From Raja brachyura (taxonomy: Eukaryota): a DNA stretch of 64,000 nt. Positions 9,239 through 55,885 of this stretch are shown here, one piece after another. The position numbers and the translations under genes are program-made. The stretch lies in contig OY740802.1 in assembly GCA_963514005.1 (NCBI GenBank), positions 19,654,001 through 19,718,000 of the forward strand, read 5' to 3'. How positions within the stretch are numbered: the first letter of the stretch is position 1; every line of letters starts with the position of its first letter. The notes under the pieces were generated by a model, which was not told where the DNA came from, searched no databases, and saw only the letters and a list, made by a program, of their open reading frames with translations.

Positions 9239-9436
9239 GTTAAAGAAGGAACTGCAGATGCTGGAGAATCGAGGGTTACACAAAAAGCTGGAGAAACTCA
9301 GCGGGTGCAGCAGCATCTAAGGAGCGAAGGAGATAGGCGACGTTTCGGGTCGAGACCCTTCCCGAAACGTCGCCTATCTCCTTCGCTCCTTAGATGCTGC
9401 TGCACCCGCTGAGTTTCTCCAGCTTTTTGTGTAACC
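9239..9436. mobile_element. Fold-back (inverted) Penelope/hammerhead unit
   Basis: Perfect 78-bp inverted arms at 9272-9349 and 9361-9438; 13-bp TSD CTGTATGTATTCT at 9226-9238 and 9437-9449. Confidence 0.88.
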
Positions 9437-9523
9437 CTGTATGTATTCTCATTGCTCTCTGAAGATTTGACCACCATTCAGATCATAATACTGGACTTTA
9501 TTTTGTAGAGACCAGCAAAGTAA

Positions 9524-16290: not shown

Positions 16291-17960
16291 AATAGTAAGA
16301 TTAAATGAGAACTTACCAGTTTGAAGTTTGATCCTCATTTTATGAGGAGTTACGATGAGGGATTACGTGAAGACCCCGCCAGCACGCATGTGCGACATTT
16401 CTTCAAAGCAGCGGTGTGAAATCACAGATAACAGAAGTTGACTGAATGTGTAGTAAGATAAGAGAACTAAAATATCAGTTGATATTTATATAGAGGGTTG
16501 GGAGCGGAGGGCACGTACTCCCTCATCGTAACTCCTCATAAAATAAGGATCAAACTTCAAATTGGTAAGTTCTCATTTAATCTTACTATTTTACTTCGGA
16601 GTCACGTGAGTGACTACGTGAAGATTTCAAAGCTCTGTGATTTCATGCTGTGGAGATGAGTCCATGCATCACACATTGTCAGCGAAGAGCTAATCTTAAT
16701 AATGCATTCAGACATGACATAGGTGTAGACATGTTGATGCTATAATGGACACATAGTGATAATAGTAACCTCCTACACCCGGGAGGAACTATAACACAGT
16801 CCTAAAAGAATTGGCAAATACCCCTGGTCTGGCAAAGGGTATTTCTAAAATATTTGGAATTGTTCGTAAGACCATCCTGCAGCCGCCAGGATGTGGTCCC
16901 GCAAAACGTCCATCCCCTGTTGCTGATATAGTTGCAGCCTGGGTGGAGTGAGACTTGTATGTCAGTGTTCACTCCTGTATCCCAGAAGCCAGAACTACAG
17001 AACCGGGCGATGGTCTGTAGTGAAATTCTCTTATGAGGCTTCATGTGACTAACAATCATCGTTAGTTCAGAGTTCCTAAGGCTCTAGTGACCTTATCATA
17101 CTGGTGTAGATGTGTGGCCACATACAACCAAAGGTCCATGGGATATGCCAGCAATTCTAGTTTGAGACCGGATGCCCCTGGTGTATTCTGCTGATTAAGT
17201 CATAACTCCGGGGTTATCCGTCGGCGGGAAATTCCTCCGCAGGTGGTGAATCTTAGAGCCCGGACCCTCCGAGTCTACGGGCTTGTCCGCCTGCTGTATA
17301 TTCGCAGCCCGGACCCTGCCAGGTCTCTGGGCTTACCGTCGGCGGTATATCTCTACTGATATGCCATACATGGATCATATCAGGAGGGAGCATTAGTGGG
17401 ATGAGCGCTCTCTGACGCTATCCATGCTCCTCATGGGTAAACGGCCGAGGATGTTCCCATATTGGAGGGGACCTCCCTGGCCTGCCCAGGCCTTTCAGAC
17501 TCTATTGCCACTAGAGTCTGAAAAAATGCCGCCGGCTATCCGCACTTCTGCGGTCCGCAACCGTGTCTTCACATGGTCCTTGCGGCTGGGATTCCCCGAG
17601 CCGGGTTCATCCCACGGTTTGCCTTCCTGCGGTTCCTGCGGCCAGGTTTCCCGAGCCGGGTTCATCCCGCAGCTTGTGTTTTCCACGCGGTCCCCGCGGT
17701 CGGGTTTCCCCCCCGCCGGGTTCATCCCGTCGAGAATCTTCCCGCGGTCCCTGACGTCTGGGTTTCCCTCCAGCCGGGTTCACTCCGCGGCCAGAATGTT
17801 CCCGCGGTCCCCACAGCCGGGTTCACCCCGTGGCCAGATTCTTCTCGCTCATGGTTCCACGCCGATTGCAGTCCGCGGTTTGCACAGCCGGGATTCCCTC
17901 CGCGGTCCCTGGAGACGGGATTCCCCGCGAAGTCTGGGGTGGGGTTCCCCATACACCCCC
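16291..17960 (-). mobile_element. DIRS1-like non-autonomous element, right half (terminus, ICR, YR remnant, GC-rich tandem array); left end missing
   Basis: Terminus 16293-16370 is complementary to ICR ~16512-16624, which contains the circle junction ..CTTACTATTTTACTTCGGAG..; YR remnant IVSHMKPHKRISLQTIAR..GVNTD at ~16800-17060. Confidence 0.88.
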
Positions 17961-26133: not shown

Positions 26134-26187
26134 ACACAAAATCTGTTATTTTACCATTAATTAATGGTAAAATAACAGATTTTGTGT
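26134..26187. repeat. Perfect 54-bp spacerless palindrome
   Basis: ACACAAAATCTGTTATTTTACCATTAA|TTAATGGTAAAATAACAGATTTTGTGT. Confidence 0.95.
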
Positions 26188-47885: not shown

Positions 47886-49259
47886 GTTTACCAGGAGTGC
47901 ACGGACCACTCTGCCCCATAAAGCTTGTGTTGCCCACTAGTGACAGAGTCTGCACACCACACCTTGGCTTCATCAACCTCCCCATGACCCACAGAATTCA
48001 GCAAAGGCATGTATTCCTTAATCCTGAATGCCATCAAATAAAGAAGAAGAAGAATTAATACAGGGAACAACAGAACAGAGAGAGCAGTAGAAAAAAAAAT
48101 GTGATTATTTAGAGCGTAGGTCTGCACCTATAAGCTATTTGTTTCTTTTCAAAAGCTACTTGCGGAATCAATCAGGCTGGTAATTGAATCAATCACCAGT
48201 GTGGAGAACTCAGTCTTCTAAAGTCAATAGCCGTGGGAAGTCATGAAAAAATATATCTGGTTTACACTGGGTGGATTATGATATAGGCTCTAATATCTTG
48301 ATGAGTCCATAAACCATATAGGTAATATTGAACTTTGAAATAAAAATGGCTTCAGATTTGAAATACTATCTAATACAGTCTAGTTTATGAAGGAATTTTC
48401 CTTCCAATTCGTAAATACAAATGGAGCTATCCAGGAATTAAACCTGGTGAACTATAACATGTTCTATTTTATCATGTATGAGAGTTGCCATTCCTCTTGC
48501 ACCCAACTGGGTGTAATACAACCTTTATCTTGTGGCAAGGTTATTTAGACTTTCTTCCTCAACTCAACAGTATCAGCCATTTCAATGCGCCTTCCCGGCC
48601 ACATTACCAGCTTTCTCTTCTCCTTAGTCATTCTGATGCTCTCCAACAAGATCTCTGTAATATCCTTTTCTGATTGAGAGGATGTCTCTATCGCTTCATC
48701 CAGAAACTCAAATGAACTAAAAAGTCAGTAGTATTGCGAATATAGCTCTTCGGGCTAACAAAGTCAAGGGATATGGGAGGAAAGCAGGAACAGTGTACTG
48801 ATTTTGGATGATCAGCCATGATCATATTGAATGGCAGTGCTAGCTCGAAGGGCCAAATGACCTGCTCCTGCACCTATTTTCTGTATTTCCATGGGATCTT
48901 CATTTGTTTCAAGAGAAACAAATGGTACATCTTCTAAATATCCATGTGACCACTTCTGGGAAACTATGGTCTATTGCAGTAGATGCAGGAAATTACTGGG
49001 TATAGGAACCACTTGAAGGATGACTGCTGGGTATACACTGCACGATGAACAGACCTGGCCAGAAATAAGTTGGTTCCATGGTTGAGGGCGGGTTTGTGTT
49101 TTGCTTTGGCAAGTGGACAGTTAAGTCCAAATTCTATTTCACTTGATAAGGCTATGTGATGGTTGTGGAACTCTAAAAATACCATATGCAGAAATGTAAT
49201 TCTTGTTATGGCGTCTGACTTTGTGTAACTTTGAGAAAATTGTATGATAAAAAATTAAC

Positions 49260-49599
49260 TGCTGTAAAGGCACATATTAAAGATGTGCATTTATATGAAA
49301 GTTTTCACTGTGTTAGATGTTCCAAAGCACTTCATAGCCACTGAAGTATCTTTGAAGTGAAGGCGCCATTCCATTGGGGCAATCAAAGCAGCCAATTTGC
49401 ATAAATGCTATGAAGAAGTGACTTTTAAAGATGTTAGGTTCAGAGATAAATGTTGGCTCCAACATCAACGTGCATTTCTGCTCTTTTTCTAATCAAGTTT
49501 CGATGAAATCTTTTATGCCGACGAAGCCTTCAATTAACATCTCTTCAGAAAGATGATGTTTCAACTTTCCCTCAGTACTGCACTGAGCTGCCAATCTTG
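49260..49599 (-). mobile_element. Deu-domain SINE (SacSINE1/AmnSINE-like), host of the DIRS insertion; continues at ~54290-54335
   Basis: TGCATTTATAT..CCAAAGCACTTCATAGCCACTGAAGTA..GCAGCCAATTTGC..CCCTCAGTACTGCACTG. Weaker copies at ~23440-23950, 54540-54660 and 55910-56110. Confidence 0.65.
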
Positions 49600-49928
49600 A
49601 TTTTACTTCGGAGTCACGTGAGTGACTACGTGAAGAACCCTGTACAGCCGTTCGTGCGTCAGACGTTTTTCGTGCAGACGGCTGTGGAGCAGCGCAGCTC
49701 CTCCATGGTAAGTCTAAAAAAGTTGCAGGTAAGTGTTATTTTTTCTTACCTGTTCTAGGTCTCCTGCAGGAACCTCCGGGGTTTTTTGCAGTGGATGTTC
49801 GCGATGACCGACGAGGGAACCAGCCTAGGGCTTTGGGGGAAAACCCTGGTCCGACCGCGGAAGCGGAGAGCTGGGAAAGTCGGGTTCGCGATCGGAGTCA
49901 CTGATAACGCGGTCAGTGACTCCACATG

Positions 49929-50436
49929 TTGGGTTCCCGGGGTAGGGGAAACTCAAGAATAGTGCGGTTTTAGACCGCAGTAGTCCCCAGGGGATGGGGA
50001 ATTAACGGACCTGAACGGTCAGCCTGGGTTCCCGGTGGAGGGGAAACTCAAGCATATGCGGTTCTAGACCGCAGTAGTCCCCAGGACATGGGGTTAAAAT
50101 TAATTTAAATGGTTAAACTGGGTTCCCGGTGCAGGGGAAACCCAGGTATATGGGTGGTTCCCAGACCACAGTAGTCCCCAGCGCATGGGGTTAAGACAAA
50201 CCTAAACGGTTAGGCTGGGTTCCCGGTGCAGGGGAAACCCAGGTATATGTGTGGTTCCCAGACCACAGTAGTCCCCAGGTAATGGGGTTAATTCACATAA
50301 ATCATTAGCCTGCGTGCCAGGAGGGTACCGTGGGTATATATTTATATATATATATATTATATTTATATGGATTCCTGGTGAGGGGAAATTCACCTATGGG
50401 GTTCCCAAACTACATTAATCCCCAGGATATGGGGAC
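49929..50436 (+). repeat. Tandem array A inside DIRS: ~95-bp multi-hairpin unit, 4 full copies plus 1 diverged
   Basis: Units start at ~49929, 50024, 50118, 50215 and ~50368. Confidence 0.9.
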
Positions 50437-50501
50437 AACTGACAAAATAGTCAGTACAATTGGGAAAGTTGGGAGATTTCACCTCTGGGAATTAATTTAG
50501 A

Positions 50502-51030
50502 GAGCAGCACTTTTGGGTAGGGCTGCTTCATGGGAATGTCAAGTTATGGCAGTGCCAGCCTATGGGAAAGGCTGTGTCAGCAGTATCTTTGTTTAGGACT
50601 GCTAATGGGGATGCCAAGCTATGGTAGGCTAGCCTGATGGAGAGGCTGTGCCAGCAGTACCTTTGCTCAGGACTGCTCAGGGGGATGCCAAGCTATGGCA
50701 GGCTAGCCTATTGGAGAGGCTGTGCCAGCAGCACCTTTGCTCAGGGCTGCTTATGGGGATACCAAACTATGACAGGCTAGCCTATTGCAGAGGCGGTGCC
50801 AGCAGTACCTTTGCTCAGGACTGCTCTAAGGGAATGCCAAGTTATGGTAGGCTAGCCTATTGGAGAGGTTATGCCAGCAGCACCTTTGCTCAGGGCTGCT
50901 TGATGAGAATGCCAAATCTATGGCAAATACTGGGCTATGGGAAAGTCTGGGCCAGCAGCTACTTTGTTCAGGGCTGCTTCATGGGCACCAGGGGTACCTT
51001 GTTAGGGCTGCTTTATGGGAATAGCAGTTT
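50502..51030 (+). repeat. Tandem array B inside DIRS: ~74-bp three-hairpin unit, ~7 copies
   Basis: CAGYA register at 50505, 50581, 50655, 50729, 50803, 50878 and 50956. Confidence 0.9.
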
Positions 51031-54000
51031 AGTAGGGTATTCCCATTCACAGTGATCATGGGGGATGAGGAGGCATTGTTAGGATAAGGCAAAATAACAG
51101 AATGATGACAAAAGTATTCAAAGTAAACTATACACAGTTTTAAAAGCGCTTGTGCTAAAATCCGCTGTCTAGTCTCAAACTATGTTTGAGAAATTGGGCT
51201 CCTCTATCCAGTTAGATTAAGTCCTATCAAATAGATTTGTAGGATGTTGGGATTTACTTTTAGGTATTCAATTGGCCATGATGCCGGCCTGGGCAACAGA
51301 TTGCAGTCAATAAGACTTTGGTAACAGTTGTTGGTATAAAACAGTTCTAGTCGTTGGATTAATTGTTAAGTGCATAGATGCAATTCAGGTGTACCTGCAA
51401 CAGTTATTTTGTTAAATGGTTAATTAGTAAGTGCCATCTAGGTCATTGTTAACACCAGCTGAAATTAATAATGTCACGATGATGGACAAACAGTGTTCAT
51501 TACTGCTCTAGTAGTTGTTAAGTAAACCTTTTATTCTATTGCAAATTGGTGCTAATGGCCTAAATGGGAAATGGTGTCAGCAGGGCTTTGTAGCAGGCCT
51601 GCTTTATGGCTCCCTCATGTACGAGGTGAGCATGTGGGATTGGTATAGTTTAACGCCGAGTCTGAGGGTATAGCCATAGAGCATGCCCAAGAGATCGGGG
51701 CATGTGCCAGAGGTCTATGCCTGGCAAGAAAGTTACCATCCCAAACACAATATGCAGTGAACACCGCTCTCAGGGGGACATTACAGTTGGCTGCCGAATC
51801 CTCTATTCAGGTAAGACTTTTCCATAGGTGTAACCTGGAGGGCGAGGCACAAGCTATTGGAACAAGCAAGGTTTCATAGTTTTGGCAACAATGCATCCCA
51901 TGTCTTTTTTGGCAGTAGCGGTTCACTGAAGTTGCTGGCAGCATGAAAGCTGGTCAGAGGTTCCATGCACTGGACTTGTGCTACTCTACAATTAAGGGAC
52001 CACTTGCAGTTTGGTAAGGTGTATACTTAGTTATACAGTACAAATGATTGAGACATTATCAGCTACTTTGAACGGTAAATGTAAAATGTACAATATTGGT
52101 TTTCAAGCAGGTTAGAGTGGACAGGTTCAGTATAAGGACCAAGATTGTCTTGCTAGACTGGCTCGGAAATCGGGCCACAGTTGCTATTTAAGGTAGTTAC
52201 CAAGTCGCTGAAAGATCATCTCGAGTTTGGAGATGGAACAGATTTGCATGACTTGCCCAAAAAGTTCTGTTATTAGTATCAACTATTTATAGACTCTACG
52301 GGCATTGTATGGGCTATAGAGTGATTGGACAAATAAGCATATTGTCATGCTCATGTTCAGGTTGATGCATTGTGATGATGGCATATGTTAGTCACGAGGG
52401 TGTAATCGGTTAAAGAATCACTGGAATGGTTACATAGTTTTGTTGCCACAGGAGAATCATCAAGTGTGGGTAATGGCAACACAGAGTTGGTGTTGAATTG
52501 CACTGTATTATGAAATTCTGGTTCAATGGAACACCTAATATGAATATATGTATATGTGTATACATATGTATGTTGGTTTCATGTTTATTTCACTGGTTGC
52601 AAAATATTTGGCATAGCAGTGGTGAAAGATACATTCTCGCCAAAAGGAGCAGGTGGGTCTTTTATGGCTACCTCCATTTTGTCTCATCAATCGAGGTTTC
52701 AAATAAAGTCATTAAGAGCTTTAAGTTCCTATTGTGTGATTATGCAAATTGATTCCCGATTTGTTGCGAATAATTATATAACCTTATTGGTTATTTTAAA
52801 CTTGAATTTGCTTGTTCAGCCTGAGGCTTCGGAAATCAGATGTTGCATGATAAACTCAAATTTATGTTCTGCAGGTCTAACAAACTGTCCTAAGGTTTGG
52901 TTTGTTACATCTATCCTTCTATGTGTTCAAAGTGTTTGCATAGCACCAAACAGCTGAATTTCTTTTCCAGGAGATGAAAGAGTTTGTTATGCTTATGTTC
53001 CATGGAAAATGGTATTGATTGCTAATGTTTCAAGTTCATGCTAAATGATCGTCTGTTACTTATGGAGTTATACGGCCATTAATTGGCTCGATGAGCTTCC
53101 TCATTGAATTGGCTGTAGCAAACAAGACTCGCTGTCGGGCCCACACTGGTTATCAAGGGGTAGGATATCTTCAACATGGGTCCCAGGACCAGTATAATGC
53201 CATATGCGATGTTGATATTTGTGAACACTATTTCACCAGGAGGCAGCAACTATATCCTTAAATTTGGTTGGAGTTTATTAGGTAGTTATCCTTCTGGCAC
53301 TGGTTTAGTGCAGCAGGTTCAGTCGCTAAATAATTGTGATGGTACAGGATGATAATGTCTGTAAATTATAATATATAATATGTTATAAATACTTGAGCAG
53401 ACCAGAAGGGGGTCAGGTCTCAAAATAGTCACAGGCATACCAGGGGACCTTTGATAAGGTAAGCACACATGTACACAACAATATGTCAAGGTCATCAAGA
53501 GCCTTGGAGTTCTGGACTAGCAATGTTGTTAGTCACAAAGAATTTGGGAGAACGTATTGTTCATGGCATTCCAGATGAGGAAAACGGAATTATGTTATGT
53601 ACTAATGGATTCTGTTTCCAGATCTCATTCCACCAGGGCTGCTACAACATCAGCAGCAAGGGTATTTATGTTCCGCTGGGTCGCATTGTTGCGGCTGGAG
53701 CATGGTCCATCGAATGAATCTCCAAACATCTGTAAGGAACCATTGGTGCACCAGGAGTATTGTTAACTCTATTTATGTTCTGGTTATATGTTCCATCTGG
53801 GTGAGAGATGGAAATATTATTGTTTCATTTAAACAGCATCAGCATGTTTTACATCTATGTTATGACTGTATGCATTATGAATGTTTTCCCTTCATTTGTC
53901 AATGAAGCAGCTGTGGTTGTGTATACTCGTTTCACACGGCATGAAATCACAGAGCTTTGAAGTCTTCACGTAGTCACTCACGTGACTCCGAAGTAAAATA

Positions 54001-54704
54001 GTAAGATTAAACAAGAACTTACCAGTTTGAAGTTTGATCTTTATTTTATGAGGAGTCGAGTTGAGGGACTACGTGCCCTCCGCTCCCAGCCCTCATAGAT
54101 TTCATCTGGTAGTTCTAGTCTTTATCTTACATTATAGTTCAGTTCTTATTTGCTGTGATTTCACACCGTTGTTTTGAAGATTGACGCACGAACGGCTGTA
54201 CGGGGTTCTTCACGTAGTCCCTCAACTCGACGACTCATAAAATAAAGATCAAACTTCAAACTGGTAAGTTCTTGTTTAATCTTACTATTATATGCTTAAA
54301 TTCTGAACCCATGACAGGCTACCAAAAACTGATGAGAAAGAATGGACGATCACCAAATAACAATGAAGCAGTTGATTAAGAAGCAGAAAGTGCATGAATA
54401 GCAAAGAACACATTGGAGTTGCACTGACTATTTTAGATATTCTCTGCCCATCAATCCTTAGTCGCAGAGGACATAAGGCTTTTTGAAGGCCCACCTTGGT
54501 TAGATTGTCCTAAGGATCAACAGTCAAACACTCTGAAGGGTCACCTCTGGCTCAGTTGTCAGTGAGAAAGCTATGGGTTCAAGTCTCTCCCAAGAGACTT
54601 GAGCACAATAAATGTTCCCAATATTCAAGTACAACAAGGAAGGAGTGCTATACTGCTGATGGGACTTCATAGCACCAATAATACAGCCATCAGCAATATT
54701 AGAC

Positions 54705-55885
54705 ATAGGTGAGGTGCCGGAAGACTAGAAGGTGGCTAATGTTGTGCCTATATTTAAAAATATAGGCACTGCAAGGAAAAGCCTGGGAATCAATCTAACA
54801 TTGATAAGATATTAGACTCTTACCATCCTGGTAGGCAGGTTACTGGAGAGAATTCTGAGGAATAAGATATATATGCATTTGGATAGGCGGGGCTGGTTAG
54901 GGGTAGTCGGCATGGGAGATTGTTTCTGAGGAATCTGATTGAGTATTTTAGAAGTAACCAAAAAGGTTGATGGGAGCAAAGCCATTGACGTTATCTATAT
55001 GGACTTCAGCAATGCATTTGATAAAGTTCTGCATGGTAGGCTGCCCTGGATGGTTAGATCGCATGAAATCCTGCGAGAGTCTGCCGACTAGATAAAGAAT
55101 TGGCTTCATGGAAGGAATGTGGTGGTGGAAAGTTGTTTTTGGCCTGGGGGCCTGTGACTAGTGGTGTGCCTCAGAGATCGATACTGGGCCCGTCATGTTT
55201 TTGGTTCAAATCAACGATTTGGATGAGAATGTGGGAATTTGGGAAGTCAAAACAGGGCAGGACCTACACAATGAATGGCAGGGCTGTGGGGAGTATTTTA
55301 GAGTAGATGGAGTTTCGCGTGTAGGTACACAGTTCCTTGAAAGTGAGTCACAGGGAGATAGGGTGGTTAAAAAGACTTTTGGCACATTGGCCTTCATCAG
55401 TCAGTGCATGGAGTACAAGTTTTGGATTTTATGTTAGAGTTGTACAAGATTTTGTTTAACAACGCATTTGGAGTATTGTGTTCAATTTTGGTCACCCTGA
55501 AATAGGAAGGATGCTGTTTAGTTGGAAAGAGTGCAGACATATGATTTTGAGGATGCTGCCAGGACTTGAGGGCCTGAGAGAGGTTGGCTTGGCTAGGACC
55601 AGGAAATAGATAGGGTGAATGCATAGAGAATGTTACCCAGAATAGAGGAATCAAGAACCAGATTTAAGGTGAGAGGGGAAAGATTCAACAGGAACCTGAG
55701 GGATAAAAGAGACAAGCTGCCATAGGAGATACTTGAGGCAGGTGCAATAACATAATTTAAAGGTAATTTGAATGGTACATAGATGAGAAAGGTTTAGAGA
55801 GATCAGGGCCAAACATAGACTTGTGGGACTACTGTAGATGGGGCATCTTGGTCATTATGGGCAAGTTGGACCAAAGGGCTTGTTT
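54705..55885 (+). mobile_element. CR1 LINE RT-to-3' fragment, internally deleted
   Basis: GEVPED..VANVVPIFK, YMDFSNAFDKVLH, VTSGVPQRSILGP; CTCTGA tail. Confidence 0.88.

Follow-up and report, generated by a model that had tools for sequence, protein, structure and literature searches.

Within a 64,000-nt stretch of the Raja brachyura genome (hereafter the window), short hairpins are repeated in tandem, and one base pair of their main stem occurs in two forms whose two sides change together. The question raised by this locus is what kind of element the array belongs to, where its unit came from, and whether the hairpins have been kept for their structure. The array is a tandem amplification of predicted ORF1 hairpins within a non-coding DIRS retrotransposon.

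The hairpin array and its non-coding DIRS host

DIRS elements are defined, as described in PMC6681497 and PMC5633606, by inverted terminal repeats together with an internal complementary region (ICR). The array lies in one copy of such an element, here termed family A (Table 1). All ten full-length copies fetched align from end to end at 97.2–98.3% identity and have unrelated flanks, and a query with the array returned 1191 first-look candidates genome-wide, 40 of which were scored; all 40 had 99–100% identity over the array, on many contigs. The inverted terminal repeats (49619–49661 against 54182–54224) are 95% complementary. The element occurs, whole or in part, in public runs of ten organisms, and the family may already be catalogued in Repbase or Dfam.

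No credible Pfam match was found in the six frames of the family A element, which hold decayed remnants only, and because intact ORF1, RT/RNase H and tyrosine recombinase are absent, it is a non-autonomous DIRS derivative, not an autonomous member. The element resembles DIRS1-like elements in its inverted terminal repeats, in an ICR complementary to both repeats, and in collinear remnants of ORF1, RT/RNase H and recombinase; unlike them, its frames are all dead despite 97–98% identity, its interior is rearranged, and its ORF1 hairpins are multiplied. A coding sister family in the same window (L064), with matches to RT (E 2.3e-10) and phage integrase (E 0.0013) and a faint Dam match, shares its first 38 nt with the family A element at 100%. 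Compared with L064, the interior of family A runs from 5' ORF1 and the arrays to an RT/RNase H piece, then to ORF1 again from the hairpin onward, then through the RNase H to recombinase region to the ends. The match of the RT/RNase H piece to coding L064 has E 7.6e-5 for the window copy and values as low as 8.8e-16 for older copies, and positions 52217–54290 match L064 2605–4809 at E 1.3e-101, with the recombinase remnant starting at 53389. Family A thus consists of dispersed, recent copies that lack coding capacity, with a coding relative that has the same ends.

For a donor-like site in the intron-like stretch (49726–49733), the folds of young and old copies predict pairing with its exact 8-nt complement (49745–49752), and the pairing is weaker in two coding copies; such pairing could hold genomic RNA unspliced. 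None of the 22 runs listed as containing the element is an RNA run. In three runs presumed to be RNA, all represented by contigs, the listed rows show neither a donor-acceptor junction at the intron-like stretch nor an end-to-end junction of the element, which speaks neither for nor against transcription. In contigs of run X15, the depth of DIRS terminal sequence (53897–54057) is ∼200 times that of the family A interior, which is not a copy number and hints that very many DIRS families have these ends in common.

Table 1. Features of the family A copy that carries the hairpin array (positions in the window).
Feature	Positions	Strand	Basis or detail
Family A copy, non-coding retrotransposon of DIRS type (4.69 kb)	49600..54292	+	End-to-end alignment of copies
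Left terminal repeat (minimum extent)	49600..49661	+	49600–49636 complementary to ICR
Intron-like stretch, two GTAAGT donors and AG acceptors	49708..49769	+	Sequence; splicing putative
First array, 94–97 nt, about 4 units	49930..50291	+	TRF; degenerate fifth unit near 50370–50440
Hairpin array	50503..51030	+	Six 74–78 nt units, 36-nt unit (50954), degenerate unit (50990)
Full unit: H1, H2 and H3	within 50503..51030	+	Array 50503–51030
Decayed RT/RNase H frame piece, out of normal order	51163..51600	+	nhmmer to L064 2123–2645
Distal full U-H1-D element and ORF1 remnant	51548..51752	+	Model E 2.8e-12; sequence-only profile E 1e-19
Decayed RNase H / methyltransferase / tyrosine recombinase region	52217..53962	+	Collinear with L064 2605–4809
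Internal complementary region (ICR)	53963..54075	+	Complementary to left-repeat start and right-repeat end
Right terminal repeat	54182..54292	+	Inverted matches; fixed copy ends

An earlier reading of this DNA from its letters (the sequence-only reading) had described seven units of about 74 nt. The period holds (TRF: 74 nt, 6.2 copies, 81% matches, 50519–50985), although the seventh unit is only 36 nt long and a degenerate eighth follows it; the units start at 50503, 50579, 50653, 50727, 50801, 50876, and 50954. H1 is comprised of 5–6 bp, a one-base 5' bulge, 3 bp and a 6-nt loop, and its stem positions had each been placed one base too high. The two sides of the toggling pair (50508/50522 and equivalents, unit positions +5/+19) do co-change in all seven units, being C-G in units 1, 4, 6, and 7 and T-A in units 2, 3, and 5, in the order C,T,T,C,T,C,C rather than in the alternation that had been described. 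The pair is T.G in the degenerate eighth copy (50990) and G-C in a ninth, distal copy (51579). The palindrome reported from the central units, AGGCTAGCCT, is present in units 2–5, and the extra hairpins attributed to most units are generally there, except that H2 is broken in unit 4 and unit 7 has H1 alone. The upper stem and loop of H1 in unit 2 read TCT(ttgttt)AGG; contigs from four other runs have C at 50586 and G at 50772.

The source of the unit in ORF1

The source of the unit is a three-hairpin element, U-H1-D, which lies inside ORF1 (gag-like) at codons A-A-P-x-x-G-L-x-N and is single copy in coding DIRS families. Most coding copies have it about 530–600 nt in from their left end. The array unit has retained U (its H3) and H1, dropped D, and added H2; judged by homology, two of the three unit hairpins (H1 and H3) descend from the ORF1 element. 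This homology rests on a covariance model, R2, built from 16 single-copy ORF1 loci, none of them from family A (an alternative model, R1, contained the family A distal copy), and on a profile made from sequence alone, with 16 coding-type 5' regions. All array matches of the covariance model lie on the plus strand; for six positions E ranges from 1.6e-7 to 0.011, and for the seventh it is 0.81. Two unrelated positions of the window score 0.25 and 0.49 with this model. The profile finds array positions at E 9.9e-7, 4.7e-4, 0.054, and 0.8.

The period had been taken to show that this is not a protein repeat. For the present element this is right (stops in all frames and no Pfam match rule out a protein repeat, and unit lengths in old copies, 36 and 73–80 nt, are mostly not multiples of three), although the unit was derived from protein-coding sequence. 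Likewise, the two arrays of the element are unrelated in sequence to each other, as had been claimed, but both trace to the 5' ORF1 region. For the 97-nt unit of the first array, the trace runs solely via a sister lineage, L169, in which a single-copy stretch upstream of U-H1-D matches the unit at a score of 47–54 (shuffle maximum 29–33). Direct homology of the 97-nt unit to coding ORF1 was rejected, since pairwise alignments were not above shuffles in 6/6 coding loci.

A coding DIRS copy with remnants of ORF1, RT and recombinase is also present at positions 1–1061 of the window (minus strand), continuing in L061; it has a single-copy U-H1-D at 419–519, and its family has 1961 first-look candidates.

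To what extent the source hairpin is held by structure in coding families was assessed at silent sites, by means of a codon-pattern search that leaves all third positions free and fixes the first and second codon positions of H1. The search gave 887 matches (none in the reversed control), and 30 loci were fetched from among the 100 matches listed. The 23 single-copy loci form 6 clusters, and from cluster to cluster the four Watson-Crick third positions of the stem show an identity of 0.93–1.0, compared with 0.43 in the bulge, 0.50 in the loop, and a background median of 0.43 (51 codons, 12 of them at ≥0.9; p 0.011). The fifth stem third position is only A or G, both of which pair with U. Protein constraint is a weak explanation for this, because the H1 peptide is rarely kept: a protein search with ORF1 matched seven homologues (three from little skate), and the peptide is kept in one of these, within the poorly aligned half. 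There is no Pfam family for ORF1.

RNAalifold over 21 loci predicts the three hairpins, with 99.4% of the H1 cells paired. Over the whole consensus fold, 93.5% of cells are paired (reached by 4/500 shuffles), while the two-sided pairs number 2 against 1.2 in shuffles (reached by 164/500). Because two-sided pairs are few and the first two codon positions of H1 were fixed by the search, the pattern in the ORF1 element is read as conservation with one-sided G.U changes, rather than as strong covariation; the one-sided states are A-U/G.U (15/6) and U.G/U-A (11/8). Of ten coding loci, nine have a predicted plus-strand H1. Together, the results describe a conserved, predicted secondary structure in the 5' region of the genomic RNA. 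The suggestion of a structure-selected module is supported in part, mainly by the conservation of the ORF1 source hairpin and by paired changes in other stems, with little added by the toggling pair.

Multiplication and possible constraint of the hairpin

Where the frame through H1 is open for at least 180 codons (24 loci), H1 is always single copy, and 13 of the 33 other loci carry 2–4 H1 copies (L168 and L169 being one element); this threshold was set after the fact, and L169 has 179 open codons. The duplicated units differ in length (138–145 nt, 117–119 nt, and 36/74–78 nt in family A), and coding elements carry one H1 copy, older non-coding lineages two to four, and the youngest family nine. 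Within family A, mean H1 copy number goes from 5.4 through 6.4 to 7.6 from old to young copies (110/111 loci). Copy number is correlated with nearest-neighbour distance (rho −0.81, 57/60 chromosome-1 loci), these loci having been picked by the exact C-G 24-mer and being related by descent, and therefore not 57 independent points. In a tree of 45 5' ends (midpoint root, no outgroup), one clade (100/100) is comprised of 25 single-copy rows and one doubtful two-copy row, and 16 of 17 multi-copy rows lie outside it. The first duplication may have happened only once, with further duplications arising separately afterwards; many independent origins are unsupported by this tree.

Other non-coding lineages also carry duplicated copies. 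L161, L169/L168, L170, and L180 have 3–4 whole three-hairpin copies in units of 117–118 nt and longer, with an apparent RT-region piece between copies in L168/L169, as in family A. L155, L159, L164, L173, L177, and L178 have a second U-H1-D copy 138–145 nt downstream, in which U shows a compensated G-C to A-U change and the H1 loop is mostly longer.

A second non-coding family has also spread (404 candidates), and the U-H1-D model has no match in 13/13 of its loci; it instead repeats an ORF1 stretch further upstream. Since this family spread without the hairpin, H1 is not required by every family. It is represented by a decayed copy at 16291–17950 of the window (minus strand) and by L068 and L069, with a GC-rich 58–60 nt hairpin array after an intron-like stretch, and its duplicated ORF1 stretch includes a 49-nt repeat at 17257–17350. 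Direct homology of the 58–60 nt unit to coding ORF1 was rejected (alignments not above shuffles, 6/6 coding loci). In L146, a hairpin-like ORF1 stretch was noted by eye about 170–140 nt upstream of H1 (codons P-V-D-S-D-E-S-G), and it is probably the piece duplicated in this second family.

The growth of the family A array could be a neutral by-product: the hairpins would matter in coding elements, and the extra copies would arise where reverse transcriptase slips or switches template at them, with the non-coding element tolerating the copies and copying between arms restoring pairing in the absence of selection. Most unit boundaries do fall at the foot of H1, unit number ranges from 3 to 8 among copies, and the adjoining 97-nt array grew in parallel, from 1.8 to 4.6 units. 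Against this, the changes seen among 33 young copies are losses (3 have lost a unit, none has gained one, and 30 match the window in length), whereas the masters gained, and units lose the third hairpin and the spacers while H1 stays whole, even as the sole hairpin of a 36-nt unit.

The toggling pair itself contributes little to a decision. Exact genome-wide 24-mer counts are 1183 for C-G, 909 for T-A, 80 for T.G, and 61 for CxA, with a purine on the 5' side in another 12, none of which is a compensated transversion. Watson-Crick states make up 2092/2233 24-mers where independence expects about half, an excess that follows from the linkage of sites 14 nt apart, pairing or not, and several T.G and CxA units resemble crossovers between unit types. 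C-G is present in 20/21 aligned rows, the exception being the distal copy of family A. The caution that two unit types had been recopied was therefore well placed: C-G is ancestral, T-A is most simply one derived state spread by copying, and the toggle amounts to a single old change in two steps that the duplication of units has multiplied; on its own it proves little.

Other changes within the array were compared among 965 units from 147 loci, with units selected for odd pairs excluded; 780 of the units fall into 17 classes that each comprise six loci or more. Changes as frequent in stems as in loops were to count against structural selection, and at face value private changes show this (0.0068 per site in stems, 0.0054 in unpaired positions); such parity is expected for copies decaying after insertion and is uninformative on the master elements. 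Between classes, extra letters number 21 in 38 stem columns and 30 in 39 unpaired columns (p 0.07, 0.13, and 0.14 at three clustering thresholds), and a hand tally of derived master-level pair states gives 12 that preserve pairing and 6 that disrupt it, the corresponding numbers for private changes being 72 and 93 (p 0.08). One-sided transitions yield a plus-strand G.U in 9/11 cases (p 0.065). Four stem changes are two-sided: the toggle, two H3 pairs (C-G/U.G/U-A and G-C/A-U), and one CxU mismatch in H3, which later became G.U in the youngest subfamily. U.G is a class state at the toggling pair, which is consistent with, and not proof of, a path from C-G through U.G to U-A. These signals all point in the same direction and none is significant alone, so that constraint within the array is borderline.

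This lack of significance speaks for neutral copying. Arm-templated repair at hairpins would convert T.G to T-A, which fits the toggling pair, although templated repair would have made the H3 CxU mismatch into A-U, and the youngest subfamily shows G.U. We consider a neutral origin of the extra copies unlikely.

Candidate roles of the hairpins

Folding predictions differ between the strands. On the plus strand, folding energy is near that of shuffles, with z at −0.62 for the array and between −0.91 and +0.33 for the seven units, while the minus-strand array beats them (z −3.57). The lower stem of H1 is predicted in 7/7 units on either strand, with a probability of 0.44–1.0 on the plus strand and 0.98–1.0 on the minus strand, and in the plus-strand fold of the whole array neighbouring units pair via the palindrome region.

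The minus-strand values, the 10-nt palindrome, and the pairing between neighbouring units would suit selection of the hairpins for a step such as RNA dimerisation, the export or stability of unspliced RNA, or the structure of a minus-strand cDNA circle in second-strand synthesis. The replication model presented for DIRS in PMC5633606, where it is called not fully proven, covers the ends and the ICR and proposes a circular cDNA, without naming any RNA recognition signal. The one-sided changes, however, favour plus-strand G.U both in the array and in the ORF1 element, and the palindrome is missing from the 76–78 nt unit types of old copies; we consider selection at such a step rather improbable. 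Tandem hairpin units within a retroelement could also give rise to phased small RNAs or, like those of retrozymes, serve as ribozymes. Rfam gave no matches at E ≤ 5 over 49000–55000, no hammerhead core was seen in the unit, unit lengths vary from 36 to 78 nt, and the origin in ORF1 is clear; we regard either use as very improbable.

The explanation that we prefer, and to which we assign about an even chance, is that the hairpins would be a cis signal for the capture of helper proteins, in packaging and reverse transcription, multiplied under competition. Hairpins that are kept and multiplied in a non-coding element must, if they help, do so in cis and without translation. Transcription would start in the left repeat and proceed on the plus strand, the hairpins would fold in the plus-strand RNA, and the ORF1 protein or RT of a coding family would bind them by shape, with the stem and 5' bulge kept and the loop free. 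Once the reading frame was lost, duplications would be tolerated, masters with more copies would compete better for limited helper protein, and the stems would be kept via G.U intermediates, the toggling pair passing from C-G through U.G to U-A. In favour of capture are the nearly invariant silent sites of the ORF1 stem, over a peptide that is mostly not kept, the consensus fold, the single H1 copy of loci with long open frames, the higher copy number of younger subfamilies, the master-level stem changes, and the Ty1 precedent described below. The near-zero plus-strand folding z next to the strong minus-strand value, the borderline constraint within the array, the weak covariation across families, the spread of the second family without H1, and a first duplication that may be single all count against helper-protein capture. 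The broader proposal, that DIRS elements harbor an RNA recognition signal embedded in gag, which protein-less parasites stack in an arms race while its stems are held via G.U, is more tentative, and we place it somewhat below an even chance.

Several known systems resemble parts of this proposal. SIRE, derived from VIPER, keeps its ends, has lost its proteins, and moves or is thought to move in trans, according to PMC6681497, and LARD and TRIM are named as non-autonomous retroelements in PMC8498967. Family A has in common with these and with engineered mini-Ty1 that the ends are kept and the proteins lost; unlike them, it is near-full length and amplifies an internal ORF1 structure, instead of having shrunk to its ends. 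In Ty1, packaging determinants are placed in the first 380–580 nt, and act in trans in mini-Ty1 donors (PMC4974528). The likeness lies in structured cis signals within the first ∼500–600 nt, given the position of the DIRS element ∼530–600 nt from the left end, although Ty1 belongs to a different element class and a function in DIRS is inferred only. In shape alone (lower stem, 5' bulge, short upper stem), H1 is like the MS2 operator and HIV TAR. These are bulged stem-loop signals for protein binding; H1 differs from them in a bulge that is A or G and in its free loop, of which the 200 listed rows contain over ten variants. No published DIRS RNA recognition or cis hairpin signal was found in a search of mainly open-access literature.

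If the arms-race proposal is correct, the fossil series within one genome would show the stepwise evolution of multivalent capture. The candidate 100-nt three-hairpin signal comes with natural stem variants and with a natural dose series from 1 to 9 copies, which makes RNA recognition testable, and inspecting what non-coding derivatives duplicate would be a general route to cis signals in mobile elements. If the multiplication is neutral, the locus is a well-documented case of hairpins seeding tandem arrays in retroelements.

Elsewhere in the window, dispersed repeats form near-perfect palindromes at 9272–9438 (167 nt, 96%) and 26134–26187 (54 nt, 100%).
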